A stretch of 43,256 nt of DNA, from assembly GCA_048615375.1 (NCBI GenBank), contig JBMCLJ010000002.1, positions 1-43,256 on the forward strand. Direction: 5' to 3'. The position numbers were made by a program, and so were the translations under genes. Below are positions 202-34,077 of this stretch, piece by piece (positions within the stretch are counted from its first letter, which is position 1; every line of letters begins with the position of its first letter). Under the pieces are notes generated by a model. It did no database searches, was not told where the DNA came from, and saw only the letters and a program-made list of their open reading frames with translations. This DNA is from Candidatus Dojkabacteria bacterium (lineage in GTDB: Bacteria > Patescibacteriota > Dojkabacteria > JAOAGR01).

Positions 202-1278
202 TTAGCCTTGTCCTGCTCTGAGTTCTGCGTTCTTCTGTATAGCCTGAGCAACTAATGTGCCAGCGTGCTCCATGGCGTTATGTCGATCAGTTCCATCAGG
301 GATTCCAAGTGCTTGATCCTGGAATATCCATGGATCTAGCGCAGATATCATTTTGTCTGTATAGCGAACAACATGATCTTCAGGGTGATAAGTCACTATG
401 AATTGTTCAGGAAGAGCTAGTGGTTGAGACAGTGATTGTAGCCTTGCTGCATGTCCCCGTGGAGGATAGTCAAATAAGTAGTCACGGAAAAAACCTCGTT
501 GGACTGCTTGTGTATAGAAGCGCCTCAGAAGTAGGTGTCCTATGCCATCACCAGCAATTAATCCATTGATGCCTACTAATTGTTCAGGGGTGAAAGGTGT
601 GTGGGCTGCAATGATTGTCCTTGGTTGCCCTTGCAAACCATTCCTGGCTAAGTGACTGCTACTTGTGACTCTTCCTCCGAAGGAGTGTCCTAAGAAGAAA
701 CTATTTTGAACCCTTGATCCATCTGAGTGTGTATCCTCAAGATGACGCATGAATAACTCTGCTGCAATTGCCATCCCATCATGGTCAAATGTTTCAGTTG
801 GATACGCAAGACTCATAACATTTGCATTAGATTTGCGTAAGCTCTCTACGCCTTTTCGCCTAAAAAGGAGATGAGAAGGATTAAAGGTGTCATGTCCTCC
901 TGCATATACCCCAGTACTTTGAGGAGACGTGTGTGGTGCTTCAACAAATCCTACAAACAGATTCCTCGCTAATTGTGGATAAGCTGCCCGCGTTTTTTCT
1001 GAATCATCTGCTACCCATAAACTAGTACCATCAATGGTACGTTGAGTTTTAGCATTTGCTCCCAGTAAATTTTCTGCGCTAAGCTCAAACGCTTCTGGGA
1101 CAGCTACAACTAGTTGGTCAAATTTTGGTTGATTCATAATTTTTGAGTAGTAACTTAATACATTATAAGCTAAGAGCCAGGTTCCAGCTTCTACACCAGT
1201 CTGAAGAGTTAAGTTCAAAAACTCTCTCCTCGTTAACCTGGTTTGCAGGTTGATGGATTCGTCACCATTAATCGGCAA
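202..1278 (-). CDS. Putative alpha/beta-hydrolase-fold protein with Tat-like N-terminal motif
   Basis: 358 aa, TTG start. GHSFGG nucleophile elbow, candidate Asp (HPEDHVV) and His (DRHN). N-terminal TRREFL followed by a moderately hydrophobic stretch. Confidence 0.55.
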   Translation of the reverse strand: MPINGDESINLQTRLTRREFLNLTLQTGVEAGTWLLAYNVLSYYSKIMNQPKFDQLVVAVPEAFELSAENLLGANAKTQRTIDGTSLWVADDSEKTRAAYPQLARNLFVGFVEAPHTSPQSTGVYAGGHDTFNPSHLLFRRKGVESLRKSNANVMSLAYPTETFDHDGMAIAAELFMRHLEDTHSDGSRVQNSFFLGHSFGGRVTSSSHLARNGLQGQPRTIIAAHTPFTPEQLVGINGLIAGDGIGHLLLRRFYTQAVQRGFFRDYLFDYPPRGHAARLQSLSQPLALPEQFIVTYHPEDHVVRYTDKMISALDPWIFQDQALGIPDGTDRHNAMEHAGTLVAQAIQKNAELRAGQG

Positions 1279-1338
1279 TCTTATAACTATATTATATCAC
1301 ACTCTCCGGTGCTTCGCTATCATTTTTTGATCGTTTTC

Positions 1339-1347
1339 TGCTAAAAT
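1339..1347 (+). promoter_or_regulatory. Candidate extended -10 promoter (TGcTAAAAT) for uvrA
   Basis: TGCTAAAAT in the divergent intergenic region, about 75 nt upstream of the uvrA ATG. Confidence 0.35.
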
Positions 1348-1423
1348 CAAAGGATAACTCTCAAAAAATATTAATTATTACATATTATTCATAGTCAAAC
1401 GTAATTCATAATTTATAACATTC

Positions 1424-4400
1424 ATGGAAGAATTCATTAAAGTTAAAGGTGCGCGCGTCCATAACTTAAAAAATGTTGATGTTAACATCCCAAAAAACAA
1501 ACTCGTTGTCATCACCGGTCTCTCCGGTTCGGGTAAGTCTTCACTGGCGTTCGATACAATATACGCAGAAGGACAGCGAAGATATGTAGAAAGTCTCTCC
1601 GCATACGCCAGGCAATTCCTTGGTGTTATGGAAAAACCTGATGTCGACTCCATAGAAGGTCTATCACCCGCGATCTCAATTGATCAGAAATCCGCTTCAA
1701 GTAACCCGCGATCTACTGTCGGTACCATAACCGAGATTTACGATTATATGAGGTTACTGTTTGCCAGGACGGGAGATCCATACTGCTATATCTGTGGAAG
1801 ACCAATTGAGTCACAGACTGTCCAGGAAATAGTAGATCGAGTTCTACAATTACCCAAACAATATAAACAAAACAACATTCGAGTACTGATACTTTCACCT
1901 GTTGTCAAAAACCGAAAAGGAGAATACGAAGATCTGTTTAGTAACCTCTCAAATAAGGGCTTCGCGCGAGTCCGTGTTGATGGAGAAATACGAAACCTTG
2001 AAGAAGAAATCAAACTCGAAAAACAAAAAAAACACTCAATAGAAATCGTGGTTGACAGACTTGCAATTACTGATTTTGACGCCATGATAGAAAGTGAAAA
2101 AGAACAGGATAACCCTTCACGGGTTACAGAAATTGAGGAGGAGTTCAAAACATTCCGCCAGAGATTGACTGACTCGGTTGAAACAGCACTCAGGTTCGCC
2201 GAAGGTGAGATGATAGTGACACTCTACGATGAAAAAAAAGATATTCTCTTCTCAGAAAACCTTGTTTGTAAATATGATGGCATTTCCTTTCCTAAAATCG
2301 AACCGCACACATTTTCTTTCAACTCTCCCCACGGCGCGTGTCCTGAATGTCATGGACTTGGCTCTATAAAAAAAGTAGATCCAAAGCTTGTCTATAACCC
2401 AAATCTTACCGTGATGGAAGGTGCTATCTTCCCCTGGTCGCGTTCTGTCGATCCCGAAAGCTGGTATATGAAGCGCATGCAAGCACTCGCTGAGGCGAGA
2501 GGATTTTCATTGAAGACCTCTCTCAAAGATCTGAAACCTGAAGACTTAAACGCGATTCTGTATGGATCTGACGATAAAATTAAAGTATCACTCGAAGGAG
2601 GAAGTTTTTCCGGAACGTATGATTCAACCTTTGAAGGAGTGATACCAAATCTTGAACGTAGATATCAGGATACTGACTCAGAACATGTTCGTACCGATAT
2701 CGAAAAATACATGATTATAGAACCCTGCCCCGAATGTCAGGGGACGCGCCTTCGAAAGGAGGCAACTTCTGTGAGAGTTGGTGGGAAAAATATAGTTCAG
2801 GCTTCAGAAATGACAATTGACGCTTGTAAGCATTGGGTTGACCAGATTGCTTCAGGACAGGAGAGTGATGCATTTAAAGGTGATGAGTCAGTATATTTTG
2901 ATGAAAAAAAACAGGCTTACATCCGACCGTACAAAGTAGATGATGACGAATACTACGAATATATGTCATTAACTTCTCATAAACAGCAAATTGCAAAGCT
3001 GGTTGTGAAAGAAATCTCTAATCGACTGAGTTTTTTAATCTCTGTTGGCTTAAGCTATCTCACGTTAAACCGCACTGCACGTACGCTTTCCGGGGGAGAA
3101 GCTCAACGTATACGCTTAGCATCGCAAATTGGTTCCGGTCTCTCCGGCGTTCTCTATGTACTTGACGAACCATCGATAGGTTTACATCAGCGGGACAATT
3201 CCAGATTGATAGGTACATTGAAGAACTTACGGGAACTTGGAAATACAGTGCTGGTTGTCGAACATGATGAAGAGACCATGATGGAAGCGGACTGGCTGAT
3301 TGATATGGGAGAAGGAGCAGGAATTCACGGCGGTAATGTGATTTCTGACGGTGTTCCTGGTGATTTTGTACAGAGCCCGTTTTCTGTGACTGCACCCTAT
3401 TTACGAAAAGAGAAGATCGTTGGGGAAGAATTTTTACCAAAGAAAAAGAAAAAAAGAGTACAGAATGGGAAAACCATTGCAGTTAAAGGAGCTTTCCAGA
3501 ATAATCTCCAGGGCATAGATGTAACGTTCCCACTAGGTAAATTTGTCTGTGTGACAGGTGTAAGTGGTTCTGGCAAGTCAACATTGATTAACGATATTTT
3601 ATATAAACACCTGCATAATCACTTTTTCCATACGAATAAAAAAGTAGGAAACTTTAAAAGCATCGATGGAGTAGAGCATATTGACAAAGTAATTAATATT
3701 GACCAGTCTCCGATTGGCAGGACACCCCGGTCAAACCCGGCAACATATACTGGTTTTTTTACAGATATACGTGAAGTATTTGCGAATACCAGTGAAGCAA
3801 AGCTACGGGGATACGGTCCTGGTCGCTTTTCCTTTAATGTCAAAGGAGGTCGGTGTGAAACCTGTAAAGGCGATGGACTATTGAAAATTGAAATGCAATT
3901 CCTGCCGGACGTATACGTTCCCTGCGAGACTTGTCATGGAAAACGATATAATCGAGAGACTTTAGAGATCACCTACAAAGGAAAAAGTATCTACGAAGTA
4001 CTGGAAATGTCAGTAGACCAGGGAGTAGAGTTCTTTACCAATATCCCTCGCATAGCCCGTTACCTTTCGCTCCTCCAGGAAGTAGGGCTTGGCTATATTA
4101 AGCTTGGACAGCCCTCGACAACATTGTCCGGTGGAGAGTCGCAACGTATCAAACTGGCTACAGAATTAGCCAAACGTTCTACTGGAAGGACGCTGTATAT
4201 ACTTGATGAGCCGACTACCGGACTTCATTTCGCGGACGTGGATAAACTACTGAATGTGCTCCATAAGCTTGTTGAAAAAGGAAACACCATGATAATTATT
4301 GAGCATAATCTGGATGTGATCAAAACAGCAGACTGGATTATTGATCTTGGGCCTGAAGGGGGAACAGGTGGAGGGGAGCTTGTTGGAGTAGGGGCGGTAG

Positions 4401-4459
4401 AAGATATTATCCAAAATAAGAAAAGCTGGACTGGGAAGTACCTGAAAAAAATTCTGTAA
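1424..4459 (+). CDS. uvrA: Excinuclease ABC subunit A
   Basis: GARVHNLKN start, two Walker A motifs ([18 protein letters not shown]), LSGGEAQRI and LSGGESQRI signatures, CxxC zinc fingers, LDEPSIGLH and LDEPTTGLH. Confidence 0.99.
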
Positions 4460-4489
4460 AAGTTACTATATACTGAAAAGAGAAATACA

Positions 4490-6004
4490 ATGAAAGCTGT
4501 AGTTATTGGAGCTGGTTTGGGCGGGCTTGCAGCAGCAATCCGACTTGCACATGCCGGTTATGAAGTTGAAGTATTCGAGCAGTCAGATTCCGCTGGAGGC
4601 AAAGCAGGTGAGCTCCGTGCTGAGGGTTTTCGCTTTGATAGAGGACCAACAATTGTGACGATGCCGTTCATTATCAAGGAATTGTTCGACGATATTAATA
4701 AAAATATTTCAGATTACCTTCAATTCACACAGCTGAGCACAAGTACAAAATATTTCTATCCTGATGATACCATGATTAACGCGTACCAGCATAATGTATC
4801 GTTTGCACAGGAGATCGCGCGTACTACTGAAGATTCTGTCGAATCAGTATACCAGTTCTTCGACTATGCTCGAAAGATTTATGAACTCAGTGAACCGATC
4901 TTCATGCGACGAAGTCTGGGGCAGCCGGAAACATTTATGTCAAAAGAAGCAGTTAAATCTTTATTTCGGCTCAGAGATCTGGATACAAAGAGGACAATGC
5001 ATGAAGCAATTTCTTCTTTTTTTAACGATCCAAAAACCATTCAGCTTTTTGACCGGTATGCGACCTACAATGGCTCAAATCCATACCTGGCCCCCGCGAC
5101 ATTAAACATTATATCTCATGTAGAAAATCGTTTAGGAACATATGTCCTGAAAGGAGGGATGCATGTATTGGTTCGTGCTTTGGAGCAAGTCGCACTGGAA
5201 AAAGGTGTTACGGTACACTACAACACGCCAGTACAAAGTATTTTGATTGATTCACGTAACGTGGTGACTGGTATCGAAATACCTGCCGGTACAATCAAGG
5301 CTGGAATAGTTGTTTCTAATGTTGACGTGAATGTTACGTATCAAAAGCTTCTCGAAGATACTTCCTCTCAACCGGCAAAAAAATACGCCAGGCTTGAACC
5401 GTCAACTTCTGCATTAGTTTTCTTCTGGGGAGTAAAAAAAGATGAAGAAGTAGCGAGGGCAAGCAAGAATATGGAAATTCACAATATCCTCTTTTCCCAA
5501 AATTACCGTAAGGAATTTCAGCAATTATTTATTGAGAAAATTTACCCTGATGATCTGACAGTGTACCTCTACATCTCGTCAAAATTCGTGCCCGGTGATG
5601 CACCTGATGGCTTTGAGAACTGGTATGTCATGGTAAACGCTCCGTATGTAAACAGTAAGTACGCTAATGAGTACCAGGATGAAGAAGAACTTCTCGCATC
5701 ACTAAAGACTGGAATTCTTCACAAAATTCATACAGTACTTGGAATTGATCTCACTTCCAAAATTGTTTTCGAGGAACGCCTTAGCCCTCAGATGATTGCA
5801 TCAAAAACTGGAAGTTTTTTAGGCTCATTGTATGGAATTTCTTCAAACTCCAGGTTCTCAGCATTTCTACGCCAGCACAATCGATCAAAAAAATATAATG
5901 GTTTGTATTTTTGTGGAGGTAGTGCTCATCCTGGCGGGGGAATCCCGCTTGTTCTCCTTTCTGGGAAAATTGTCGCTGACCTGGTAATGAAGTATCATGG
6001 TTGA
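4490..6004 (+). CDS. crtD: CrtI-family FAD-dependent carotenoid desaturase, most like 1-hydroxycarotenoid 3,4-desaturase
   Basis: GAGLGG Rossmann motif, FRFDxGP, QLFDRYATYNGSNPY, SALVFFWG, HNILFS, DAPDGFENWYVMVNAP and YFCGGSAHPGGGIPLVLLSG. These blocks match my recollection of Bacteroidota-type CrtD. Family is secure, subfamily less so. Confidence 0.8.
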   Translation: MKAVVIGAGLGGLAAAIRLAHAGYEVEVFEQSDSAGGKAGELRAEGFRFDRGPTIVTMPFIIKELFDDINKNISDYLQFTQLSTSTKYFYPDDTMINAYQHNVSFAQEIARTTEDSVESVYQFFDYARKIYELSEPIFMRRSLGQPETFMSKEAVKSLFRLRDLDTKRTMHEAISSFFNDPKTIQLFDRYATYNGSNPYLAPATLNIISHVENRLGTYVLKGGMHVLVRALEQVALEKGVTVHYNTPVQSILIDSRNVVTGIEIPAGTIKAGIVVSNVDVNVTYQKLLEDTSSQPAKKYARLEPSTSALVFFWGVKKDEEVARASKNMEIHNILFSQNYRKEFQQLFIEKIYPDDLTVYLYISSKFVPGDAPDGFENWYVMVNAPYVNSKYANEYQDEEELLASLKTGILHKIHTVLGIDLTSKIVFEERLSPQMIASKTGSFLGSLYGISSNSRFSAFLRQHNRSKKYNGLYFCGGSAHPGGGIPLVLLSGKIVADLVMKYHG

Positions 6005-7133
6005 CATGTTACTTCTTGCTTTTACGACGGTGATCGCCCTGATAACACTAGTGGTTGCGCTGGATAATTTTTTTCACGCCCCACGGTTGGAGAATACTGG
6101 AAAACGTAAGATTCCCGTTGCAAGTGCATATCCATTTGTCTCAGTACTCATACCTGCTCGAAATGAAGAAAAAAATATTGCTGCCTGCATTGATGCTGCC
6201 AGTGTCCAAACATACCCCCATATGGAAATTGTAGTGCTTGATGACGACTCATCCGATACAACACTGGAAATAGTACACAAATACAGTAAAACAGCAAAAC
6301 CAGGATCTGTTTGTGGGTTCCGGCTGATACGTGGTAAGCGGCTTCCGCCGGGGTGGACTGGAAAAAACTGGGCATGCTTTCAATTGGCGCAGGAGGCATG
6401 TGGCGATGTGATACTGTTCATTGACGCGGATGTTGTTCTTGCTCCACACGCAGTGCAAACAGCAGTTTCAGGAATGCAGGCATATAAAGCTGACATTTTA
6501 TCTTGTTTTCCAGTTCAGATTACATGTTCCTTCGGTGAGATGCTCATAGTCCCTATGATGCAATGGATTTTATTAGCTTTCCTTCCATTAAAGCTGGTCT
6601 TCGAGTCAAAGAACCCTGCATTTTCAGCAGCGAACGGTCAATTTCTTATGTTTTCAAAGCATGTTTACCAGAAAATTGGAACTCACGCGGCGTTTAAAGA
6701 CAATGTTGCTGAAGATATTGAAATGGTTCGTTCAGCAAAAAAAGCGGGTTTTTTACCGGTTACTGCCGTTTCGGGTAAAAATACAGTTGTGTGCAGAATG
6801 TACAGAAATTTCCTTGAAGCATACCAGGGCTTCGCAAAAAACTTTTACCCCGCTACAAATGTCCACCTACTTGTTTTTATGGTTCTAATGGTATTCGTTA
6901 CTGTCGTATACTTTTTACCGTTTATCCTTATGCTCTTCGATATGGTATTTATTGTCCCAGTTCTTTTTCTGCTGACCAGTGCAGGAATTATCAGAGTAGT
7001 TTCAGGAAACAATATTGTTCGTAACATTTTCCTTTTTCCCCTGCAAATAGTATTATTACTTTCAATAGGCTTGTACTCGGCATATGTAACCAGTACCAGG
7101 CGAGCTGTATGGAAAGGAAGAAAATTACCATAG
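5997..7133 (+). CDS. GT2 glycosyltransferase, CruC/CrtQ-like carotenoid glycosyltransferase
   Basis: N-terminal TM, VSVLIPARNEE, DDDSSDTT, LPPGWTGKNWAC, FIDADV, ANGQF, AEDI, CRMY, C-terminal TMs and WKGR end. Overlaps the crtD stop by 8 nt. Confidence 0.8.
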   Translation: MVDMLLLAFTTVIALITLVVALDNFFHAPRLENTGKRKIPVASAYPFVSVLIPARNEEKNIAACIDAASVQTYPHMEIVVLDDDSSDTTLEIVHKYSKTAKPGSVCGFRLIRGKRLPPGWTGKNWACFQLAQEACGDVILFIDADVVLAPHAVQTAVSGMQAYKADILSCFPVQITCSFGEMLIVPMMQWILLAFLPLKLVFESKNPAFSAANGQFLMFSKHVYQKIGTHAAFKDNVAEDIEMVRSAKKAGFLPVTAVSGKNTVVCRMYRNFLEAYQGFAKNFYPATNVHLLVFMVLMVFVTVVYFLPFILMLFDMVFIVPVLFLLTSAGIIRVVSGNNIVRNIFLFPLQIVLLLSIGLYSAYVTSTRRAVWKGRKLP

Positions 7134-7819
7134 TGGATGTCAATCAAAATACAAAAATACACAAGACTGACTTTTCAAGTCTTGTCCTATCTTACCTGGT
7201 ACGATACGGAGACAAAGTAATTTACAGTTTCTTCCTCTTTGGTGCTATATTGCATATGTACCCCGGAAGTCGTGCCTTGATGGTAAGCTTAACAGCTATT
7301 GTTCTTTTTATTCTCTTGTTTTTAGCATTTCTTCCCGAGGTACTGCATAAGAACATCCGGTTAATGACTGGAGTCTTTGGAATCGCTATTTTCACACTTT
7401 TGATAGAAATAATAGGTCATGAAACTGGGATTGTTTTTGGGGAATACGAATATGGTGAGATACTTGGACTGGCTGTTTTTGGTGTACCAATACTTATTGG
7501 CTTACTATGGTCTGCGATTATCATTGCATGCACCGCCATTACGACCAGGATTATCAGTAATACGTGGATATCCAGTTGTCTTGCAGGCTTATGTGCAGTA
7601 GGCTTTGATTGGATACTTGAACCGGTTGCAATTAAATTAGGTTACTGGGACTGGGAAGGGGTTGGAGTACCATTCCAGAACTATCTCGCATGGTTCGGAA
7701 TAACCTTCATTTCCTCAATATTACTCCGTAAGCTGAATGTAGAACCAAAAAGCTTGCAATTTGAAAAGTTTTTCATTTCATTAACATTCTTTATGGCAGC
7801 ACTTTTCCTGTTCATTTGA
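7109..7819 (+). CDS. cruF: CruF-like carotenoid 1,2-hydratase (DUF422 carotenoid biosynthesis membrane protein)
   Basis: Multi-TM protein with EIIGxxTGxxFGEYxYGxxLG, GVP-I---W, DWILEPVAxxLGYWxW and VPFQNYLAWF motifs typical of the CruF/DUF422 family. Overlaps the upstream GT2. Confidence 0.8.
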   Translation: MERKKITIVDVNQNTKIHKTDFSSLVLSYLVRYGDKVIYSFFLFGAILHMYPGSRALMVSLTAIVLFILLFLAFLPEVLHKNIRLMTGVFGIAIFTLLIEIIGHETGIVFGEYEYGEILGLAVFGVPILIGLLWSAIIIACTAITTRIISNTWISSCLAGLCAVGFDWILEPVAIKLGYWDWEGVGVPFQNYLAWFGITFISSILLRKLNVEPKSLQFEKFFISLTFFMAALFLFI

Positions 7820-7888
7820 AGGTTTCGGTTATAAAACAGCCTGATAGAACGGTATTATAACTTATGTTATTTAATTTCATCATATAAT

Positions 7889-7917
7889 TTGCAAACTGAA
7901 TATAAACACTGTAAAGT
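7889..7917 (+). promoter_or_regulatory. Sigma70-type promoter for the mraZ operon
   Basis: TTGCAA (7889-7894), 17-nt spacer, TAAAGT (7912-7917), immediately upstream of the MraZ boxes. Confidence 0.55.
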
Positions 7918-7921
7918 AATT

Positions 7922-7950
7922 GTGGTTATAAGTGGTGAATGGTGGTGAAT
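7922..7950 (+). promoter_or_regulatory. MraZ-binding direct repeats
   Basis: Three GTGGT repeats with 10-bp periodicity (7922, 7932, 7942) just before the mraZ ATG. Matches the known GTGG-N6 MraZ operator layout. Confidence 0.85.
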
Positions 7951-7951
7951 A

Positions 7952-8380
7952 ATGCTCATAGGCGAATTTGAATCAAAGTTAACAGATAAAAATCGAATCG
8001 CCTTGCCAAAGAAGTTTCGTGAGGAAATCGGAGATACATTCATAATCACACAAGGTTATGAAGGAAGTGTCATTCTTGTAGATGAATCAAGGTTTCTTGC
8101 TCTTACACAAGAGATACGAGACGGGAGTTTTGTAAACGATGCAATTCGAGATACAACCCGGTTTCTGATAGGATCCGCCCATGAGGTAAAGCTGGATAAA
8201 CAAGGGAGATTTGTACTGCCCCAATCTCTCAGGTCATTTTCGGATATTGAAAGTGACGTCATTTTTCTAGGTCTCATGCGTTGGGTTGAAATCTGGTCCA
8301 GGGATGTATGGTTACAGCGAAAAACATTGATCAGCAATGAAGCTCCAAAAATAGCCAGTCGGCTTCCTGGTGCAGCTTGA
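7952..8380 (+). CDS. mraZ: Division/cell-wall cluster transcriptional repressor MraZ
   Basis: 142 aa with two SpoVT/AbrB repeats (DKNRIALPKKFR, LDKQGRFVLP, VEIW), located upstream of rsmH. Confidence 0.97.
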   Translation: MLIGEFESKLTDKNRIALPKKFREEIGDTFIITQGYEGSVILVDESRFLALTQEIRDGSFVNDAIRDTTRFLIGSAHEVKLDKQGRFVLPQSLRSFSDIESDVIFLGLMRWVEIWSRDVWLQRKTLISNEAPKIASRLPGAA

Positions 8381-8411
8381 AGCTGCACCAACCAGGTGTA
8401 TAATTAAATCT

Positions 8412-9326
8412 ATGGAACAACATACACCTGTGCTGCTGCGTGAAGTATGCATTCAATTTGAAGGAGTAGTGAATGCAAAAAAATCAATTGTTGCTGTTGA
8501 CTGTACATTGGGACAGGGAGGTCACTCATATGAGCTTTTCAAGAGGCTCAAATATGGAGTTTTGATTTCAATTGACCTGCATTCTGACTCGATAGAGTGG
8601 GTGCGCTCTCATTATGGTCTTAACCCTTCGCATGCATATCCTGGAGTATATGAAAAAATCCAGGAACATAAGTGCTGGTACGTCTTAGAGCAAGACTTTG
8701 CTGAGATTGAGCAGGTGATAAAACTGTTCAAGCTGGCGCGTGTGGATTTTATTCTTGCTGATTTAGGTTTTTCTAATTATGAACTCAGCAGCGACCTCGG
8801 CATATCATTTGAGCGACCCGATCAGCCTTTAGACATGAGGTACACAAATAATGCCACTTTGCAGGCAAAGGATGTTCTCAATACATTCAGCCATGAGGCA
8901 TTGCGTGAAGTATTGCAGCTTCATGGAGATATGCAGGACAGTGGCAAACTTGCCAGGAAAATCGTTGCGTATCGAAGTCATCGATTATTCCAGAAAGTAG
9001 GCGACTTGCTTGCCCTCTTCAATCGTAGTTCATTTCCTGAAAGTACCAGGATTAAGCTTTTCCAGGCACTCAGGTCGTACATTAATGAGGAGCCCGATAA
9101 ACTTAATGCGCTAGTAACAAAAGTTCCACAACTGGTACATCCTTCAGGCGAGGCGAATATCATTACATTTAACTCTCTCGAAGCATCTCTTGTGCGGTCT
9201 TCGTTATATCCGCTTTCCAGCAGGGAAGTAAATATAGCGGAGATGATACGTAATCCGCAAAGTAGAAGTGCTACATTATACATATACAAAAAAGAATCAA
9301 ACGCGCGCGGTTCGGAAGCCGAATAA
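8412..9326 (+). CDS. rsmH: 16S rRNA m4C1402 methyltransferase
   Basis: HTPVLLRE, DCTLGQGGHS, ADLGFS, PLDMR, FQALR and NPQSRSA. ATG 8412 preferred over GTG 8370. Confidence 0.93.
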   Translation: MEQHTPVLLREVCIQFEGVVNAKKSIVAVDCTLGQGGHSYELFKRLKYGVLISIDLHSDSIEWVRSHYGLNPSHAYPGVYEKIQEHKCWYVLEQDFAEIEQVIKLFKLARVDFILADLGFSNYELSSDLGISFERPDQPLDMRYTNNATLQAKDVLNTFSHEALREVLQLHGDMQDSGKLARKIVAYRSHRLFQKVGDLLALFNRSSFPESTRIKLFQALRSYINEEPDKLNALVTKVPQLVHPSGEANIITFNSLEASLVRSSLYPLSSREVNIAEMIRNPQSRSATLYIYKKESNARGSEAE

Positions 9327-9595: not shown

Positions 9596-11647
9596 ATGGA
9601 TCAGTCTCTAAAAGAAAATGCAAAATATTTAAAACTTTCATTTGTTGTTCTGTTTGCAGTTTTGATTGCGCAGCTTTTTCGAGTACAGGTTTTGGAGAAC
9701 GATAAATGGTCGATAAGATCAGCAATTCGTAATGAACTGAGGATGACGTATGCGGCCTCGAGAGGGAACGTTTTTTTTCATGACGGTAGCCCTCTGGCGG
9801 TAAATGAACTTGCATATGGAATTTTCGTTCTTCCAGAAGTATTTAAAGATGATGATCTGATTCAGGATGGCATTACATTCGCTTCCTTCGCGCATGCTGC
9901 TGCTGACATTCTTGGAGTTGACCGTGAAAATTTATATTCACAGATAGCAGATCCAGGGAAAAAATATGTCCCTATCGCAAAAAAAGTTTCAGTAGGTACC
10001 ATGAACACCTTAATGGAAGCGTATCCACTGGATTTACATATATGGACATATGAGGAACAGATGAAACGGATCTATCCAGATGGTCAACTTGCATCAAAAC
10101 TTATCGGTTTCGTAGGCAAGGACGAGGAAGGTAATGAAGCAGGAAGGTATGGAATAGAAAAAGCATTTGATGGAGTTCTTCGAGGAACAGAAGGTCTTTT
10201 TGAAGGTCAGAAAGATAGTAATAACCATGTCATTGTCAGCGAGAACTTTGAGAATGTGAATTCGCGTAACGGTATTGATATAACGTTAACAATCGATAGG
10301 GGTATCCAGATGATGCTTGAAGAAAAGTTAATGTATTGGTTAGATAAACTCAAGGCAAAGGAGGCAACTGCGGTGATATTAGAACCAGGTACAGGAAGGT
10401 TAATTGCCTCCGCAAATGTTCCTCAGTATGATCCTAATCAGTACTGGAAAGGTGAAGTCGTTGATTGTGAGCTTGAATACTATGTAATACATACTGACTG
10501 TAATGAGGAAGAAGAGGAGGAGAAAGATCCTGAACTGACTGAGGACATAACTGATATTGAAAATCAGGATGAATTAGATGCTAATTATCCTGACGGTTAT
10601 GTTGAGGAGATGCAAAAGCAAGAAGAAGAGAAGAAGAGACAGGAAGAGGAGGAAGAGGAGGAAGAGAAGGACAAAGTTGACGAAAGAATTGCGAAGTATA
10701 ACCCGCTGATACGAGAAAACTTCCGCGAGGAGGATATGCCTCTCTCGGAAGTGCATAGAAACGCGGCAAACTCATTTTTGTACGAACCTGGCTCTGTCAT
10801 TAAAGTGTTAACGTTAGCTATCGCGTATCATTATAACGCAGTACCTCGAGATCCACATTTCCCGCTTGGTGGTCATAGTGGCTGCGCTAAAATTACTGAC
10901 CGTGTTCTTTGTACTTCTGACAAACGTCCCAAAAGCTCGTTAAATGTTGTAGAAATGCTTCAATACTCTGATAATATTGGTGCAATCCGGGTCGCGCAAA
11001 CAGTGCCAATAGAAAAATATGTCGATGCGCTTAATCAGTTCGGCGTAGGCAGGCCTACAGAGATTGAACTTGCAGACGAAACTGTTTTCTCAATGAAAAA
11101 TAAACTATTCTGGACAAAAATCGACCAGGCAACTGCCTCGTATGGTCAGGGAAGTGTAGCGTTTACACCTATTCAATTAGCCCACGCGTGGAATATTCTC
11201 GCTTCAGACGGTAAAGCATACAAGCCATATCTAGTGCAGAAAATAAACGATAATGGCGTAGAGAGTTCTTTTGATCCCACCTACCTCGGCCAGGTCGTCA
11301 ATGAAGAAGCTGCAAAAGACGCTTTACATGTTAACGCACTTGCCTCGCGCGATTCTTTTCTGACAGAAGCGCGGGATTTTCACCAGAAATACCCATTTAC
11401 AGCAAAAACAGGAACTGCGAACATACCAAAACCTGATGCAGCTGGTTACCTGGAAGATGTGGTTAATACGAGCTATCTTGGCTCAGCACCGCTTGATACT
11501 CCAAAGTTTACTATGCTTGTCTGGTTTCGAGAGCCACGAATTGGCTCCGATGGTAAACCGGTAACCTCATTGAATACGGCTCAAATTGCATGGATCGACA
11601 TTGCTGAGGAGCTTATGGTCAGAATGCAGGTGCCACCACGTAAATAA
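9596..11647 (+). CDS. ftsI: Class B penicillin-binding protein (FtsI/PBP3-like) with long acidic insertion
   Basis: N-terminal TM, RGxxxxxDGxxLA, RIYPDG, GRYGIE, LTIDxxIQ. Transpeptidase motifs EPGSVIK (SxxK), SDN and KTG. Position in mraZ-rsmH-ftsL operon. Confidence 0.9.
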   Translation: MDQSLKENAKYLKLSFVVLFAVLIAQLFRVQVLENDKWSIRSAIRNELRMTYAASRGNVFFHDGSPLAVNELAYGIFVLPEVFKDDDLIQDGITFASFAHAAADILGVDRENLYSQIADPGKKYVPIAKKVSVGTMNTLMEAYPLDLHIWTYEEQMKRIYPDGQLASKLIGFVGKDEEGNEAGRYGIEKAFDGVLRGTEGLFEGQKDSNNHVIVSENFENVNSRNGIDITLTIDRGIQMMLEEKLMYWLDKLKAKEATAVILEPGTGRLIASANVPQYDPNQYWKGEVVDCELEYYVIHTDCNEEEEEEKDPELTEDITDIENQDELDANYPDGYVEEMQKQEEEKKRQEEEEEEEEKDKVDERIAKYNPLIRENFREEDMPLSEVHRNAANSFLYEPGSVIKVLTLAIAYHYNAVPRDPHFPLGGHSGCAKITDRVLCTSDKRPKSSLNVVEMLQYSDNIGAIRVAQTVPIEKYVDALNQFGVGRPTEIELADETVFSMKNKLFWTKIDQATASYGQGSVAFTPIQLAHAWNILASDGKAYKPYLVQKINDNGVESSFDPTYLGQVVNEEAAKDALHVNALASRDSFLTEARDFHQKYPFTAKTGTANIPKPDAAGYLEDVVNTSYLGSAPLDTPKFTMLVWFREPRIGSDGKPVTSLNTAQIAWIDIAEELMVRMQVPPRK

Positions 11648-11672: not shown

Positions 11673-12275
11673 TTAATTAATAACAAAATCCTCTTCACGT
11701 CCAATTATCATTGCTTTAGGGAGGACGGTAAGTGAGTAGATTAACGGATCCCGGCGTCGTTTATTAATCTCTAACTCTTTCTCAGAAATGACATAATAGA
11801 AAATTTCCCGTCGTTCCACATTCTCGGCCTCTTTGATACATTCCTCAAGGGTTTCTATATGCGGTTCTCCGACAATCAGTAAGTCGAGGTTTTGTGCATC
11901 CGATTTTTCACGGTTTAAATATGTGTGAGTAAGGATAGCGTAGCGGATATTTCCTAACTTTCTCCTGTTCTTAAACAAGTAATGGCCTACTCCATACGAC
12001 TTCATAATTGTACTTCGAAATTCATTATAAAACGCAAAGTCAGGATTAATAGTATAGTACTTTCGAATCCCGTCTTTTTTTGAAATAAGGAACTCTGTTT
12101 TTTCCATGGAAATGAGTTCGCGTCTGACAGCATTTATCTGTTCGCCAATATCACGTGCAATTTTGCGCATATGTAGAAATTCAGAAGGAGAGGTATAAAA
12201 TAGCGACATTATTTTATATCTAACCCGTGAGGTAAAAAACTGCGCAGTGATTTGTTTTAAATCATGTTTAACCAT
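11673..12275 (-). CDS. Winged-HTH (ArsR-like) protein fused to a degenerate nucleotidyltransferase-like domain
   Basis: N-terminal HTH (MRKIARDIGEQINAVRREL...GIRKYY). C-terminal part has LDLLIVG but lacks the GSxA motif. Confidence 0.65.
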   Translation of the reverse strand: MVKHDLKQITAQFFTSRVRYKIMSLFYTSPSEFLHMRKIARDIGEQINAVRRELISMEKTEFLISKKDGIRKYYTINPDFAFYNEFRSTIMKSYGVGHYLFKNRRKLGNIRYAILTHTYLNREKSDAQNLDLLIVGEPHIETLEECIKEAENVERREIFYYVISEKELEINKRRRDPLIYSLTVLPKAMIIGREEDFVIN

Positions 12276-12371: not shown

Positions 12372-13340
12372 TTAATGAATTCTCCTGCTCGAGAGATTCG
12401 CTTTTTGAGTGATAAGTTTGTCAATCTTGATTTGTACGAGTAGCGATGAAGTGAGAAAGATTATAATGACTACAAAATAAGGTATGAACTGAGAAAAAAA
12501 TTCTTCTGTTGTTTTTAGATCTGAAGAATTGATAATGAGCTTGGGTGGGTTACGATTTTTAGTTTTTGGCAATTCTTCAGAAAAGTACGTACGTATGCGC
12601 TCGTCAGTAATATTTTGAAATAATTCAATCCTGCCTGTTACCTCGTATTCCTGATCGGCAAGAAGATCAGGGTCTTCTACCTGTTTCTTCTCAAGGGCAT
12701 TACGGGTATCATTCTCTCCTCCTTTCAGCAATAAAAAATCCCGTGGATTATCTTCAGAATAAATTGGCAGATATACTTCCTGCTTCACGAGTTCCTGGTA
12801 TCGTTCGTCTTTGTAATCTTGTTTAATAAAAGCGTCAGTATAATTTGTTCTTCCCTTCAGTGTGACTATCTCCCCAATATACTTATTATTCAGTACATTG
12901 GCTACTGAGACTTCTTCTACCTGTCGTTCTACAGGCTCAAGATTAAATCGAACTACGGTAATTATCGCTGCAATACCAAGGCAGATTGTCCATAAAAGCC
13001 ATAAGGATGCCCAAAAGTTTGCTATATTTGAGGTGTACAAACGATTTTTTGAAAACAAAATGAGCAGGTGTGAAGATAACCCGTTTTTAAATATTTTTCG
13101 GGCAAATCGATCGCCGTAACGTGCTTTCCATCCGCAGGTATCACAACGCAGTTCAATAGAAGGCATGACTTTGATAGAAAAAGAGAGAAGCTTAAGTTCA
13201 TAGTACTTTTTGACCAGTACAAAGTTTCTTTGTTCATTATTGCCTGAGCATGAGTACTTGCATACCTCCGGAAACACTTGAAGTAAAGTTTTATGGAGTT
13301 GAAAAGAGATTACATCTTCAATTTTTTTCTTTTGGGTCAT
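12372..13340 (-). CDS. Hypothetical membrane protein (N-terminal Cys motifs, two TM segments, extracytoplasmic domain)
   Basis: CKYSC...RCDTCG, TM at ~aa 108-131, soluble domain, C-terminal TM. Starts 1 nt after the stop of the upstream GT2. Confidence 0.7.
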   Translation of the reverse strand: MTQKKKIEDVISFQLHKTLLQVFPEVCKYSCSGNNEQRNFVLVKKYYELKLLSFSIKVMPSIELRCDTCGWKARYGDRFARKIFKNGLSSHLLILFSKNRLYTSNIANFWASLWLLWTICLGIAAIITVVRFNLEPVERQVEEVSVANVLNNKYIGEIVTLKGRTNYTDAFIKQDYKDERYQELVKQEVYLPIYSEDNPRDFLLLKGGENDTRNALEKKQVEDPDLLADQEYEVTGRIELFQNITDERIRTYFSEELPKTKNRNPPKLIINSSDLKTTEEFFSQFIPYFVVIIIFLTSSLLVQIKIDKLITQKANLSSRRIH

Positions 13341-13341
13341 A

Positions 13342-14244
13342 CTATTTTGAACTTTCTATACGTACCCAGCTTTTTTTTAATGCTGTTGCCCGAAATTTTG
13401 CATACCAGAAAATTACAAGCCACAACCATAAACGTGCTGGATAGAGAAGCAGAGAATAGACACATTCACGGGCATTTTGAGCATAGTTGATCGGGAATAG
13501 AGAGTATGCCAGCTCATGTTTCAACGTGCGTTTCAACCCTGTTGATTGTTTATACTTTTTTAATTGAGAATACCCTCCGACAGAGCGTTTTTTTTGCTTT
13601 ATCCAATCCTGGAAATTTTTGGGGTACTTTACGTACACTTTTGCTTGTGGTTCGTAGGCGACTCGAAAGCCTTGTTCGACTACGGTGAGCGTTACATATG
13701 CATCGTCGACAAGTATACTCTCAGGAATGCTGCTACTGAGAGATCTTCGTATTGCGTAGAGATATCCGCTCATGAAGTAGTAAGATCCATGTGTTTGTGA
13801 GTCACAGCGTTTTTTATGTGCTGCGTCGGCAAGTAGATGTCCCCAGTATCCAAAACAACGCGCGCGTGAATCAGCACTGACAGGGCGTCCAGAAATACTC
13901 CCTATATCCTGATGTGTAAATCCAGAAACTAATGTCTCAATAGCTTTATTAGCGACAATCACATCTCCATCCGTAAAAATGAGAATATCTCCCTGCGCTA
14001 TTTCGATTGCGATATTAAGTGCAGTTACCTTTCCTTTTTGGGGATCAAGTACATGGGTAAACGATGAAAAATTACATCTCTTTACAACCTTTTCAGCAGC
14101 CTGGGCAGTTTCTTCATCCGGGCATATTACCAGTATTTCCATAGAATCCAGTACTTTTTTTGAGGTATCCCTGAGTACATTGGATAAACTCGCTTCGACC
14201 GTCTCGGGTTCTCTCCATGCGGTAATGATTAAGCTATATTTCAT
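13342..14244 (-). CDS. Glycosyltransferase family 2 (PgaC/cellulose-synthase-like motifs)
   Basis: GKVTALN, FTDGDV (DxD), SGYLYAIR, VDD, YEP and QKKRS at the QxxRW position. Confidence 0.85.
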   Translation of the reverse strand: MKYSLIITAWREPETVEASLSNVLRDTSKKVLDSMEILVICPDEETAQAAEKVVKRCNFSSFTHVLDPQKGKVTALNIAIEIAQGDILIFTDGDVIVANKAIETLVSGFTHQDIGSISGRPVSADSRARCFGYWGHLLADAAHKKRCDSQTHGSYYFMSGYLYAIRRSLSSSIPESILVDDAYVTLTVVEQGFRVAYEPQAKVYVKYPKNFQDWIKQKKRSVGGYSQLKKYKQSTGLKRTLKHELAYSLFPINYAQNARECVYSLLLYPARLWLWLVIFWYAKFRATALKKSWVRIESSK

Positions 14245-29493: not shown

Positions 29494-30603
29494 ATGCATT
29501 TTGAACCGTACGTAGAAGTACTTCCGCTCATTATTCTTTCATTTGTTACCGCTCTTGCAATCACTCCTTTTTTACGTTGGTTCGGGCTTCGTTATGGTTT
29601 TGCGACCAAGCCGAAGGCTGAGTGGAAACCAGATGAGAGAAACGCTGTCACTGTACATCATACCAAGCGGATGTCTCGATTGGGAGAGTTTGCGATGCTT
29701 ATTCCTCTTGGTATATTTATGTGGCAGGACTTGAGCCTTAATATTCAGGTTTTAGGTTTTGTCCTTGCTGCTGGATTAATTGCAGTTATCGGTGCATTTG
29801 ACTCCAAGTATAATCTCAATGAATTTGTCAAGCTTTTTATTCTTATTTTCAGTGGAATTATACTTATCTTTACAGGTACTATGATAGATATCAACTCGAT
29901 TGTTCAATTATCCTGGTTGCCCGAAATCACTATAAACAATCCGGTTCTCAATGAACGCATGTCTGTCTTTTCAATGATCATTACGCTTATGTGGATCGTT
30001 GTTGTACCATATGCGCTAAGCCTTGTAGGTGGAGTAGATGGTTTGTCTGAAGGGACAACTACCATTGCTCTCATGATTCTGGTTCTGATTGGTATCAGAA
30101 ATGGTGATACATTTACCATTGTGATTGGCTCGGTATGTCTTGGAGGTATGTTGGGTCTGCTGCCCTATAATTTTCATCCCGCTATGATATTTTCTGAGCA
30201 TTTAATCTTTGGCTTTATTATTGCAGTGCTGTCCGTTACCTCCCAGGCAAAGATTGCTACTTCCATTCTCATACTAACTGTACCTTTGATAGACTTTATT
30301 TTTGTGCACTACTTGAGGACAAAGAAATACTTTTCAGAACAAAAAAAATTTAATTTTAGGTTATTGCTTCACTATTATGGGACTGGTGATAGGAATCATT
30401 TACACCACAAGCTCATGGATCTGGGGATGAAACCTGCTCACATTGCTCTTTTTCAGTACATACTGTACGCCGTATTAGGCTTTGCAGCTCTGGTTGTTTC
30501 TGGACTGTATTTGACGCTTGTAGTGCTTGGCAGTATTGTGTTAGTTGTGCTAATATTATGCTATATAAACTACCAACTCAATAAGATACATAAAGATACA
30601 TAA
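29494..30603 (+). CDS. MraY/WecA/TagO-family (GT4) polyprenyl-phosphate sugar-1-phosphate transferase homolog with altered catalytic motifs
   Basis: About 11 TMs, VH....RLG, GVDGL, YNFHPAMIF, P..D and DRNHLHHKL (WecA/TagO HxHH). Confidence 0.85.
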   Translation: MHFEPYVEVLPLIILSFVTALAITPFLRWFGLRYGFATKPKAEWKPDERNAVTVHHTKRMSRLGEFAMLIPLGIFMWQDLSLNIQVLGFVLAAGLIAVIGAFDSKYNLNEFVKLFILIFSGIILIFTGTMIDINSIVQLSWLPEITINNPVLNERMSVFSMIITLMWIVVVPYALSLVGGVDGLSEGTTTIALMILVLIGIRNGDTFTIVIGSVCLGGMLGLLPYNFHPAMIFSEHLIFGFIIAVLSVTSQAKIATSILILTVPLIDFIFVHYLRTKKYFSEQKKFNFRLLLHYYGTGDRNHLHHKLMDLGMKPAHIALFQYILYAVLGFAALVVSGLYLTLVVLGSIVLVVLILCYINYQLNKIHKDT

Positions 30604-32243: not shown

Positions 32244-33530
32244 TTATGATTTTAACGAAAGACTTTTTTGGTCTCTTTTATCGCGCGATATTTCAGTACT
32301 GTAGCATTCGTACACTCCTGCAGTAAAGGCAATTATAAAGAAAACTAAACTAGAAGAGAAAAAAGCAGTTAGTAAACTGGTAAAGTCTTTACCCACAACG
32401 ATAAAGATTAATACCTGGAGCAAACTTGCAAAAACAGGTAAATAAATATACTTCTTTTTTCCTGTGGTGAATAACCAATTAGAGAGTAGATATGATGTCG
32501 ACATGAACGTTGTGGCAAATAAAAAATATATTTCAAGAGAACGGGATGTTAAAGTGAGTTCAGTATCAAGAAAGCCTAATATATACGAGTGTAGTAGAAT
32601 GAATCCTCCACTTAAACTGATTCCTGCAATCAAGCCAATCAAGGTAGTAAAGAAGAATACGAATTTCTTAGAGTGGTCGCTTTTATTCGCTACTGAATAC
32701 ACAACAGCTGATACAGTAAAAACTCCAAAAAAAATGATTTTACGGAAAACCTGAAGGGTATTAAACTCTGTCTGGGCAATAGAATCATTAGGTAATACCC
32801 TGTCAGCGTAGACTATATCAAAATTTGCAAAAAATTCTAACCCGGCTGTCATAAGCATGATCCCGGAAAAAACAGGGAATAGCTTAACGGGCGTATAATG
32901 AATGTTTTTAAAATTGACATACTTCATGTCAAGACATATAAGCATGCTCAACACGAAACCAAGGATATGACCCAGCAGAATGCCGTTGATGCTCATGCCA
33001 AGCAGTACTGCAAAAATGAATCCTAAAAATAGTCTTCCTGCTGCTTCAAGATTCATTGAAATCACTGCGATTGTGTAGTTTTCCTCATTTTGCTTCAAAC
33101 CTCTGAAGATATTCGCTATCACGCCGATCACAGCCAGGATAATCAGCAGCGCTGACGTTATTATCGTGCCACCCTCAAGAATTGATGTCAAAATATAATT
33201 AACAGGAATGAGAAGAACCGCAAATACGATTAAACAGATAATTGCTTTATTCTTAGCCCGGACCAGCGAATCTTTAACATTACGGAATAGTGAAAGTCCC
33301 TGGCTGGTGAATATACGCATGACAGCCAATGAAGGTATAAGTAGTATGAGAGAGGCGCTCGTGTAGGCGGTGTAGAGATTAAAAAGAGGCTCGTCAATCC
33401 GGAGCAGGATGATGTTAAGCAGGTAGTTAAGTCCATTTGCGATATTACCGCCAACAAACATTAATAAATTATTCTTGAGTAGTTGTCTTTTACCGTTATT
33501 TACTTCAATATTTTCGCTATTTCTTTCCAT
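32244..33530 (-). CDS. Wzx-like polysaccharide/oligosaccharide flippase (MOP superfamily)
   Basis: About 12 TMs, N..NYL N-terminal motif, RG..Q, E...RL and DIV.A in the second half. Confidence 0.65.
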   Translation of the reverse strand: MERNSENIEVNNGKRQLLKNNLLMFVGGNIANGLNYLLNIILLRIDEPLFNLYTAYTSASLILLIPSLAVMRIFTSQGLSLFRNVKDSLVRAKNKAIICLIVFAVLLIPVNYILTSILEGGTIITSALLIILAVIGVIANIFRGLKQNEENYTIAVISMNLEAAGRLFLGFIFAVLLGMSINGILLGHILGFVLSMLICLDMKYVNFKNIHYTPVKLFPVFSGIMLMTAGLEFFANFDIVYADRVLPNDSIAQTEFNTLQVFRKIIFFGVFTVSAVVYSVANKSDHSKKFVFFFTTLIGLIAGISLSGGFILLHSYILGFLDTELTLTSRSLEIYFLFATTFMSTSYLLSNWLFTTGKKKYIYLPVFASLLQVLIFIVVGKDFTSLLTAFFSSSLVFFIIAFTAGVYECYSTEISRDKRDQKSLSLKS

Positions 33531-33557
33531 AAAAGCATGGTTATTATACATGGAGGA

Positions 33558-33965
33558 TCATTTTTTATCATCAAGTGCCCAATTCGTAAGGTTATTCAAC
33601 AAGGCAATAAAAAGCGAAGATACAATGATAATCGCAATCCTGGACAGTGAAATCGATGAAACCTGGATATCAGAATTTGAAATCGCGGAAATATAACCAT
33701 TGCTGATTGTAAAACCACTTATTAATAAGCTAAATAAATATATCATTGCTACCGAAACGAGAAAATTAAACAGGCCAAAAGAGAAGAAATTAATTGGGAG
33801 AGTTAAAAACGAAATAGTCGGCCGTATGAATATCTGAAATACCGTCAGGAAGAGAGCTAAAAAAAGCATGGTTACTGGCGAATTAAATTCAAAACCGTGT
33901 AGTAGTTGATCTACAATGAATAGTATCGCAATAAAGGAAAAAAATCTTAGTACAGCTTTTTTCAT
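33558..33965 (-). CDS. Phage holin family 4 / YvlD-like 4-TM membrane protein
   Basis: IRP....LTLPIN....GLF...V and GF.I motifs. ATG 33965 preferred. Confidence 0.8.
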   Translation of the reverse strand: MKKAVLRFFSFIAILFIVDQLLHGFEFNSPVTMLFLALFLTVFQIFIRPTISFLTLPINFFSFGLFNFLVSVAMIYLFSLLISGFTISNGYISAISNSDIQVSSISLSRIAIIIVSSLFIALLNNLTNWALDDKK

Positions 33966-34077
33966 TGCATGTATGTTTGCACATCTTCTTTGAAATGTAA
34001 AAAAAGCACAGCGAAAAAACTTTGCATAATTCAAAATATCAGTTAATATAGTCGTAGTAACTGAGCTGCTCGTATAC

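Follow-up and report, generated by a model that had tools for sequence, protein, structure and literature searches.

Three overlapping genes for predicted carotenoid-tailoring enzymes, a crtD-like desaturase, a CruC-like family-2 glycosyltransferase (GT2) and a CruF-family membrane protein, lie between uvrA and mraZ in a stretch of 43,256 nucleotides from a Candidatus Dojkabacteria bacterium (the window, meaning the whole stretch that was analysed). Genes for making the carotenoid backbone were found neither in the window nor elsewhere in the assembly. We give about even chances to the account that the cluster was once complete and probably acquired by horizontal transfer, and that the three genes left of it still work, turning psi-end carotenoids from outside into glycosides without acyl groups. 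The enzyme activities in this account would be those of characterised family members, and the uptake of carotenoids, the product and the role of the product (membrane reinforcement or photo-oxidative protection) are predictions as well. More tentatively, and with somewhat less than even confidence, we propose that this Dojkabacteria lineage runs a carotenoid salvage, in which outside pigments of the lycopene or gamma-carotene type are turned into its own glycosylated xanthophylls, and that the same logic may recur across the class.

The proposed course of events would be as follows. A larger carotenoid cluster of the Ignavibacteriota/Bacteroidota type would have stood beside uvrA and would since have been reduced to three genes. 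No route to phytoene, geranylgeranyl diphosphate (GGPP), isopentenyl diphosphate (IPP) or undecaprenyl diphosphate was detectable, so the substrate (lycopene, gamma-carotene or similar) would have to come from outside, either from a host or from a carotenoid-rich hypersaline mat. CruF would hydrate the 1,2 double bond of the psi-end, CrtD would desaturate C-3,4 of the resulting 1-hydroxy end, and the CruC-like GT2 would place a sugar onto the 1-hydroxyl. These steps would yield a 1-hydroxy-3,4-didehydro carotenoid glycoside, which is expected to carry no acyl ester because the acyltransferase is absent.

Predicted functions of the three genes

The layout of the open reading frames and the family scores, which were far above chance level, agreed with the sequence-only reading, which had described three overlapping genes between uvrA and mraZ. 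The product of the first gene (ORF1) scored 338.1 bits against crtI_fam TIGR02734 (cut-off 238.1), and its best match was the CrtD equivalog NF042421, named 1-hydroxycarotenoid 3,4-desaturase, with 457.1 bits, slightly under the cut-off of 500. The protein retained 51 of 57 near-invariant positions, which for all three proteins were defined as positions conserved in at least 90% of the named homologues. The residues G7, G9, G11, G12, E30, G36 and G37 were invariant in the CrtD alignment A1, and we take this N-terminal glycine pattern to be the FAD/dinucleotide-binding motif. By its family, ORF1 is predicted to be a 1-hydroxycarotenoid 3,4-desaturase.

A search among 5.8 billion proteins showed that the closest CrtD was a 94% identical twin (P0001), and the next ones were 49-55% identical, with the named homologues at this level coming from Melioribacteraceae/Ignavibacteria. 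The best class-mate protein, from genome G022, was 44-47% identical, which is below the Ignavibacteria homologues (G000 is the genome of the window, G001-G006 are genomes of the same family and other G numbers are class-mates in Dojkabacteria; L numbers are genomic loci and X numbers sequencing runs). In a tree made by a quick method from 73 of the 130 available rows, one clade of 47 rows (SH-aLRT 100) united the window, P0001, G022 and the named Ignavibacteriota/Bacteroidota CrtD, and the CrtI copies from the same loci grouped in another clade. The window and P0001 were weakly sister to the CrtD of G022 (SH-aLRT 80), and the remaining crtI-family genes of Dojkabacteria formed two separate class-specific clades.

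The second product (ORF2) scored 89.1 bits against the GT2 family PF00535 (cut-off 23) and retained 62 of 66 near-invariant positions, D143-A-D145 (DxD) included. Its identity with the GT2 encoded in crtD-acyltransferase-GT2-cruF clusters was 40-46%, and the GT2 tree put it into the same clade as the carotenoid-cluster GT2 (SH-aLRT 95, 44 rows), with a polytomy inside the clade. The comparison found it orthologous with the GT2 that lies between cruD-like and cruF genes, and synteny agreed with this. ORF2 is predicted to glycosylate the carotenoid 1-hydroxyl with a CruC-like function. The third product (ORF3) matched Pfam PF04240 with 98.5 bits (cut-off 25; 100.2 bits in the genome scan) and retained 23 of the 25 near-invariant positions of the cluster-linked CruF group, and it is a candidate carotenoid 1,2-hydratase. 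Its scores were below the cut-offs of all three NCBIfam CruF equivalogs (71.8 against 154.7, 45.9 against 300 and 29.3 against 400 bits), which include bisanhydrobacterioruberin hydratase and gamma-carotene 1'-hydroxylase.

Another possibility is that the module works on some other imported or membrane isoprenoid lipid, such as a polyprenol, a squalene- or hopanoid-like lipid or a quinone side chain. The best NCBIfam model for the GT2 was the hopene-associated HpnB with 142 bits (cut-off 379), higher than CruG with 112 bits (cut-off 600), both below cut-off; no CruC model was among the NCBIfam results. PF04240 also matched in the control genome of Methanosarcina acetivorans, which is not known to be carotenogenic. 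The closed genome G001 keeps a GT2 without cruF or crtD, and the lineage would have to import polyprenyl lipids anyway. However, the other members of the CrtD clade sit in full carotenoid clusters, and the GT2 and cruF are orthologous to carotenoid-cluster genes by order and by sequence. Among the 221 genomes of the class, 12 had a CruC-like GT2 (E<=1e-25), and this gene occurred with cruF in 11 of the 12 and with crtB in only four, which are those that have the backbone. The GT2 of G001 kept 52 of the 66 conserved positions compared with 60-63 in the others, which suggests relaxed or changed constraint in G001 alone. We consider action on another lipid unlikely, and the carotenoid assignment is followed below.

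Signs of selection and erosion at the uvrA site

Two sequencing runs, from two studies separate from the possible source study, held relatives of the window: the hypersaline-lake run X3 contained pieces about 98-99% alike to the window DNA, and the microbial-mat run X4 contained a strain about 95% identical. Judging by these two runs, the habitat would be salty microbial mats; runs with a small share of matching DNA (X5, X6, X8-X11 and X13-X16) were not counted for this. The differences that were listed between the window and these strains were 40 of 329, none of them inside crtD. Of those listed in GT2 and cruF, 17 of 24 were synonymous, and the share expected at random was 23% (binomial tail 9e-7); in uvrA, 12 of the 14 listed were synonymous. 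For crtD the comparison was made with P0001, which has 29 substitutions relative to the window protein and lacks the residue at position 258. The X4 strain has a 3-base in-frame deletion at 5261 that matches this missing residue exactly, so P0001 is probably the protein of the X4 strain. Assuming this, crtD had a rough omega of 0.17-0.21 (29 substitutions against approximately 78 estimated base differences). Apart from this in-frame codon, the X4 strain showed only two indels across the region, each of one base and both in the spacer between uvrA and crtD, and no frame-breaking indel was found in the cassette. These comparisons give signs of purifying selection on the cassette between strains about 5% apart. 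The sequence-only reading had proposed that outside carotenoids are scavenged, an idea that is strengthened by these signs but remains a proposal.

The position of the cassette was then compared within the family. UvrA was 66-78% identical to that of the six family genomes and approximately 57-62% identical to full-length matches in other families; the identity tracks kinship, which means that the uvrA flank is native. A cluster gene follows uvrA in five of the six family genomes: the orthologous GT2 in G001, G003, G004 and G006, and, in G005, whose contig ends there, a gene for lycopene cyclase. The uvrA-GT2 pair of G001, G003 and G006 stands tail to tail with mraZ-rsmH-ftsL-ftsI. Contigs of the X4 strain span the junctions uvrA-crtD (record 21), crtD-GT2 (record 22) and GT2-cruF-mraZ-rsmH (record 24). 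Because of this linkage in the family and the bridging X4 contigs, the locus is ancestral to the family and its junctions are real. The sequence-only reading had described the cassette as inserted between uvrA and mraZ; it is not a fresh insertion and looks like the remnant of a larger cluster. No synteny of the flanks was found with cassette loci outside the family.

The family itself shows a stepwise erosion of the carotenoid cluster. Contig breaks fall inside the cluster in G005 and G004. In G004, only about 33 residues from the N-terminus and 111 from the C-terminus are left of crtD (L115:4797-5198), which adjoins an intact cruF. The cruF of G003 (L117 ~9613-10300, minus strand) has an in-frame stop and a frameshift, and its congener G006 has an intact cruF of 236 aa, with GT2 and cruF at separate sites. 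At the uvrA site G002 is empty of cluster genes; uvrA is followed by a spacer of 734 bases and mraZ, a search of this spacer for cluster remnants gave chance-level matches only, and a GT2-cruF pair lies at the start of another contig. Together with the lone GT2 of the closed G001, this decay series means that the module can be dispensed with and may be in the course of being lost.

Such a series (G005, G000, G004, G006, G003, G001, G002), and the existence of class-mates with complete clusters (G022, G142), would also suit a mere relic of a lost pathway, intact by chance or only recently useless, with neither substrate nor present function. But a relic does not readily explain the synonymous excess and the absence of frame-breaking indels between the strains, nor the retention of conserved positions of the catalytic type. 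The tailoring frames were also intact in crtB-less genomes of several families. Among class genomes with cruF, crtB was absent from 14 of 28, and in the crtB-less genomes looked at the cruF frame was open in 12 of 13, with only that of G003 broken (G009 was left out). We judge the relic improbable.

Carotenoid backbone and isoprenoid supply

The window is the entire contig C2 of the G000 assembly, which has 1,357,128 bases in 125 contigs and is 91.9% complete with 5.6% contamination. The lineage was confirmed to belong to the candidate phyla radiation (CPR, Patescibacteria), as the sequence alone had suggested, and comparison with named class members placed it in the class Dojkabacteria (WS6). 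Profile searches of the whole assembly gave no match for crtB/crtM (SQS_PSY, PF00494), polyprenyl synthase (PF00348), IspH, undecaprenyl diphosphate synthase (UPPS), HMG-CoA reductase or GHMP kinases, and the control genomes gave the expected matches for the backbone and isoprenoid families. There was no second crtI in G000, where crtI_fam found the cassette gene and one 29-bit Rossmann match, and for a lyeJ-type UbiA the best match, located on another contig, reached 18.9 bits (cut-off 34.2). When CrtB, CrtI and GGPP synthase of donor type and of the class itself, together with cyclase, CrtW and acyltransferase, were used as tblastn queries against G000, the cassette alone was matched. None of the parts of a self-sufficient carotenoid pathway (crtB, phytoene desaturase, GGPP synthase and a source of IPP) was found in the 91.9% complete assembly. 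The six family genomes, which include the closed G001 and two genomes of 9-10 contigs, likewise had no crtB, polyprenyl synthase, crtI-family gene (E<=1e-20) or UPPS in any of the six. The earlier observation that crtE, crtB, a second crtI, a cyclase and an acyltransferase are missing from the 43 kb was borne out, and in the searches made it is true of the whole assembly as well; crtB or crtI elsewhere in the genome, which the sequence-only reading had named as something that would refute its interpretation, did not appear in the genome-wide searches.

Two MraY/GT4-type genes were seen in G000 (window 29494-30603 and C63:1411-1926), together with Mur ligases, and UPPS was found in only 12 of the 41 genomes searched, with none in G000 and the six family genomes. 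The MraY/Mur steps of peptidoglycan synthesis need a polyprenyl-phosphate carrier. With these steps present and UPPS absent, dependence on imported isoprenoid lipids seems to be general across the family.

Incomplete assembly offers a third explanation, namely a complete but split pathway whose crtB, crtI and GGPP synthase lie in the 8% that was not assembled or binned. An assembly of this completeness and fragmentation could have missed a small contig with crtB and crtI; in G022 the crtB-crtI pair lies on a short contig of 5.5 kb, a type lost in binning, and the cluster is interrupted by contig breaks in G005 and G004. Against this, seven unlinked isoprenoid functions are absent together from G000, and the family genomes lack the same genes, the closed one included. 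In addition, cruF is directly followed by mraZ in G000 and in the X4 strain, so crtB-crtI is not at the position it has in G022. We hold a split pathway to be quite improbable; if backbone genes did turn up, the finding would be no more than a pathway split in the ordinary way. An artefact of assembly or binning that put foreign Ignavibacteria-type DNA into a CPR genome, to which the higher identity of CrtD with Ignavibacteria/Melioribacteraceae than with the class-mate and the contamination estimate might point, is effectively refuted, for the independent X4 contigs span all cassette junctions, UvrA follows the kinship of the family, uvrA-GT2 linkage recurs in four other family genomes and the G+C per kb of the cassette (0.37-0.44) lies inside the range of the contig (0.35-0.44), so the chimerism at the cassette edges that had been considered from the sequence was not seen.

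Our preferred account, a working remnant that tailors imported carotenoids, has to be weighed against several of these results. All three proteins fall short of the NCBIfam equivalog cut-offs; the family carries broken, lone or missing copies of the genes; the listed strain differences are a part of the total and the crtD estimate depends on the identity of P0001; and the assembly leaves room for a missing contig. The absence of crtB covers G000 and the six family genomes, and the X4 strain, which was used for the constraint, stands outside this set. Moreover, none of the window genes was identified as part of an uptake system for carotenoids or lipids. All of these points count against the account.

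The class as a whole was also surveyed (221 genomes; those listed 0.4-2.3 Mb, and the 40 nearest genomes 0.6-2.3 Mb). PF04240 was present in 28 genomes, SQS_PSY in 21 (one weakly) and a crtI-family gene (E<=1e-20) in 28. The crtI-family gene occurred in 20 of the 21 crtB-positive genomes, and crtB was absent from 8 of the 28 with a crtI-family gene. The sequence-only reading started from the premise that CPR bacteria usually lack lipid backbone synthesis; for the carotenoid backbone this does not hold generally, as crtB occurs together with a crtI-family gene in about 20 of the 221 genomes. G052 was counted as crtB-less, but it is a weak case, as its crtI-like gene runs up to the end of a contig. 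The gene orders varied: crtI-crtB-GT2-cruF in G142, crtI-cyclase-GT2-cruF without crtB in G106, cruF-crtI in G016 and G108, and GT2-cruF alone in G126 and G002. A GT2-CruF fusion frame was found in G015 (L118:10344-11700), preceded by a crtI-like gene, in a closed genome of about 0.76 Mb without crtB or polyprenyl synthase, and another in G024 (L130:8438-9898, minus strand), adjoining a polysaccharide deacetylase gene. These fusions tie the two predicted steps together. In five crtB-positive class-mates, IspH was found in none and GHMP kinases above cut-off in two, G013 and G039; G142 had a weak match. In the other genomes, the closed G057 too, a "complete pathway" therefore covers crtB plus crtI and not necessarily the supply of IPP.

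Heliorhodopsins were noticed in the same survey. A heliorhodopsin above cut-off was present in 94 of 221 class genomes, and in 24 of the 37 with cruF, crtB or a crtI-family gene compared with 71 of the 184 without, kinship being ignored in this count. A heliorhodopsin gene (PF18761) adjoins cruF and crtI-type genes in G016 (L119:10422-11183, minus strand, 333 bits) and on contig C17 of G013 (L121 ~2462-3211), and in G054 one (C10:18004-18735) lies within 2 kb of crtB-crtI. Dojkabacteria heliorhodopsins have been reported before, according to the available part of PMC9166423, and the accessible part of a 2025 preprint proposes that heliorhodopsins recruit exogenous xanthophylls as a second antenna (10.1101/2025.11.27.691015). 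Where the genes adjoin cruF (G016, G013), tailored xanthophylls may be linked to such an exogenous heliorhodopsin antenna. For G000 a rhodopsin-antenna role was rejected: this genome gave no heliorhodopsin and no type-1 rhodopsin, the search for the latter being of unchecked sensitivity, as the control genomes also gave no type-1 match.

Lipids and cofactors from hosts are held to sustain CPR bacteria, but there are few concrete, testable examples of which ones are taken and how they are used. A three-enzyme operon of well-understood chemistry, apparently selected, in a genome without an isoprenoid route is directly assayable, and a carotenoid glycoside would be a chemical marker for the transfer of lipids from host to episymbiont. 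If the salvage is true, it would be the first case of a bacterium whose carotenoid metabolism consists of tailoring alone. The class series, from full clusters over tailoring-only sets and GT2-CruF fusions to pseudogenes, shows how an acquired pathway is dismantled in reduced genomes and which steps stay useful.

Gene neighbourhood and relation to known systems

The coordinates of the cassette and its flanks are given in Table 1. The genes overlap by 8 bases (crtD/GT2) and 25 bases (GT2/cruF), and the spacers are 30 bases between uvrA and crtD and 132 bases between cruF and mraZ. Given the 30-base spacer, uvrA and the cassette are probably co-transcribed. A scan of 1200-8500 gave 19 promoter-like matches where 17.1 were expected and 6 terminator-like matches where 5.3 were expected, which is chance level, so nothing was concluded from it about operon boundaries. 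Contigs from RNA libraries (X7, X12) fall on uvrA, crtD and the start of GT2, but they may stem from DNA and were not used as evidence; positions 6740-7807 (cruF) were outside all the pieces listed for these two libraries, and no conclusion was drawn from coverage.

Table 1 Cassette genes and flanking genes in the window
Feature	Position	Strand	Remarks
uvrA	1424-4459	+	Upstream flank; NCBIfam UvrA 1452 bits
crtD-like FAD-dependent desaturase	4490-6004	+	504 aa; ORF1; crtI_fam TIGR02734, NF042421
CruC-like family-2 glycosyltransferase (GT2)	5997-7133	+	378 aa; ORF2; PF00535
CruF-family membrane protein	7109-7819	+	236 aa; ORF3; PF04240 Caroten_synth
mraZ	7952-8380	+	Downstream flank, start of dcw cluster; Pfam MraZ 74.6 bits
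rsmH	8370-9326	+	154.9 bits; ftsL-like and ftsI next in dcw cluster

Housekeeping genes make up the remainder of the contig: ftsL-like, ftsI, trigger factor, ParB, TsaD, GroEL, Mur ligases and an MraY-type GT4, and further KsgA, DnaJ, FtsQ-like, FtsA, FtsZ, RNase III and adenylate kinase. The spacer at 7930-7951, just 5' of mraZ, ends with two tandem copies of a TGGTGAAT-like word, which by analogy we presume may be an operator-type repeat for MraZ. A second, unrelated GT2 (PF13641) lies at 13342-14244 (minus strand) and adjoins two frames without Pfam match; the frames listed around it are 12372-13340 and 11673-12275, both on the minus strand. Two more frames, of 435 aa (32244-33551, minus strand) and 358 aa (202-1278, minus strand), had no family match. 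A 177-aa protein at 33558-34091 (minus strand) matches the 4-TMS phage holin superfamily IV (PF04020, 58 bits) and stands amid housekeeping genes. Elsewhere in G000 there is a second, shorter UvrA-like gene (a 654-aa frame, C34:11489-13312) and a C-terminal UvrA fragment (C99:8-367). The UvrA match of G015 (C1:90530-97182) is broken by long gaps and that of G024 (C12:45-3089) has a shorter break; these may be inteins or insertions.

The relatives of the cassette were compared by locus. The best 80 loci in species genomes were nearly all from Ignavibacteriota and Bacteroidota, with a few from Spirochaetota, Myxococcota and Chlorobiota and one from Dojkabacteria, and 36 of these 80 had crtD, a gap of approximately 0.65-0.9 kb, GT2 and cruF on a single strand. 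In the locus L104 the gene in the gap is a PlsC-type acyltransferase (PF01553, 35 bits), and the full cluster there is crtI, crtB, lycopene cyclase, crtD, acyltransferase, GT2, cruF and crtW. The GT2 and CruF trees had a basal polytomy of Dojkabacteria and Ignavibacteriota/Bacteroidota rows and did not discriminate between one and several acquisitions, between donors or between directions. An approximately unbiased (AU) test did not reject one clade for the five CruF rows of family f1 (p 0.479), which is no proof of such a clade. The CrtD type is rare in the class (the lineage of the window and G022) and common in Ignavibacteriota and Bacteroidota, so a transfer into Dojkabacteria is the economical explanation, and the cluster was probably acquired horizontally. 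The proposed donors of Bacteroidota/Chlorobi/Ignavibacteria type are in keeping with the best hits, the gene order and the CrtD tree as far as affinity goes, but the trees do not resolve the direction of transfer.

Blocks of the L104 type, crtD-acyltransferase(cruD-like)-GT2-cruF in Ignavibacteriota, Bacteroidota and Chlorobiota, have crtD, GT2 and cruF in the same order and on the same strand as the window, and the identity to the best cluster loci was 43-53% for CrtD, 33-45% for GT2 and 29-46% for CruF. Unlike these blocks, the window has no PlsC-type acyltransferase between crtD and GT2, and the crtI, crtB, lycopene cyclase and crtW of L104 are missing from the whole of G000, where no isoprenoid precursor pathway was found either. 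The nearest case in the class is G022, with cyclase-crtD-GT2 and the same acyltransferase-less crtD/GT2 junction as the window, and with cruF, crtB and crtI at the start of another contig (5.5 kb). The remnant in the window looks like a derivative of cyclase-crtD-GT2-cruF with adjacent crtB and crtI, as still present in G022. G022, G142 and G013 keep crtB, crtI and polyprenyl synthase, whereas the family of the window keeps none of them.

The functions of CruF (1,2-hydratase), CruC (glucosyltransferase) and CruD (acyltransferase) were established by expression in E. coli, as stated in the available part of PMC13704108, and CruC and CruD were inactive without CruF, as stated in that of PMC7414004. 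As far as the available parts of the sources describe the pathways of Chloroflexus aurantiacus and Rhodothermus marinus, which lead to gamma-carotene glycoside esters, the window matches them by enzyme family and by the logic of 1,2-hydration followed by glycosylation. These two organisms make their own backbone, whereas the window adds CrtD and lacks CruD, and the likeness is at the level of families. Fusions of cruF occur on both sides, cruF-crtB in R. marinus according to the same partial sources and GT2-cruF in the Dojkabacteria class-mates.

The enzymes and the gene order are thus already known, and so is the occurrence of crtD and cruF in Patescibacteria: the available part of PMC9948471 reports lyeJ-crtD-cruF genes in Lake Baikal Patescibacteria and reads them as bacterioruberin synthesis, so that finding carotenoid genes in CPR is by itself nothing new. 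The lack of backbone genes is not taken up in that part of the paper. Compared with the Baikal set, the window has a GT2 in place of the lyeJ-type UbiA, its genes form one overlapping operon, and the UbiA-type lycopene elongase of a bacterioruberin module was not found. In the literature searched, which left out most subscription journals, only PMC9948471 tied cruF or crtD to CPR, and none was found that deals with the salvage of carotenoids by CPR or episymbionts. What seems new is a constrained tailoring-only operon in a genome and a family in which no isoprenoid synthesis was found, and further its derivation from a cluster that is complete in class-mates, the erosion series in the family and the GT2-CruF fusions. 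The closest parallel in way of life is in Saccharibacteria, whose rhodopsins may depend on retinal from the host, according to the available part of PMC9296517. As described there, they are likewise CPR bacteria that use a carotenoid-derived molecule without its synthesis, with supply from a neighbour being proposed. Saccharibacteria take up a ready-made cofactor, whereas the Dojkabacteria module would remodel an imported pigment by three enzymes.

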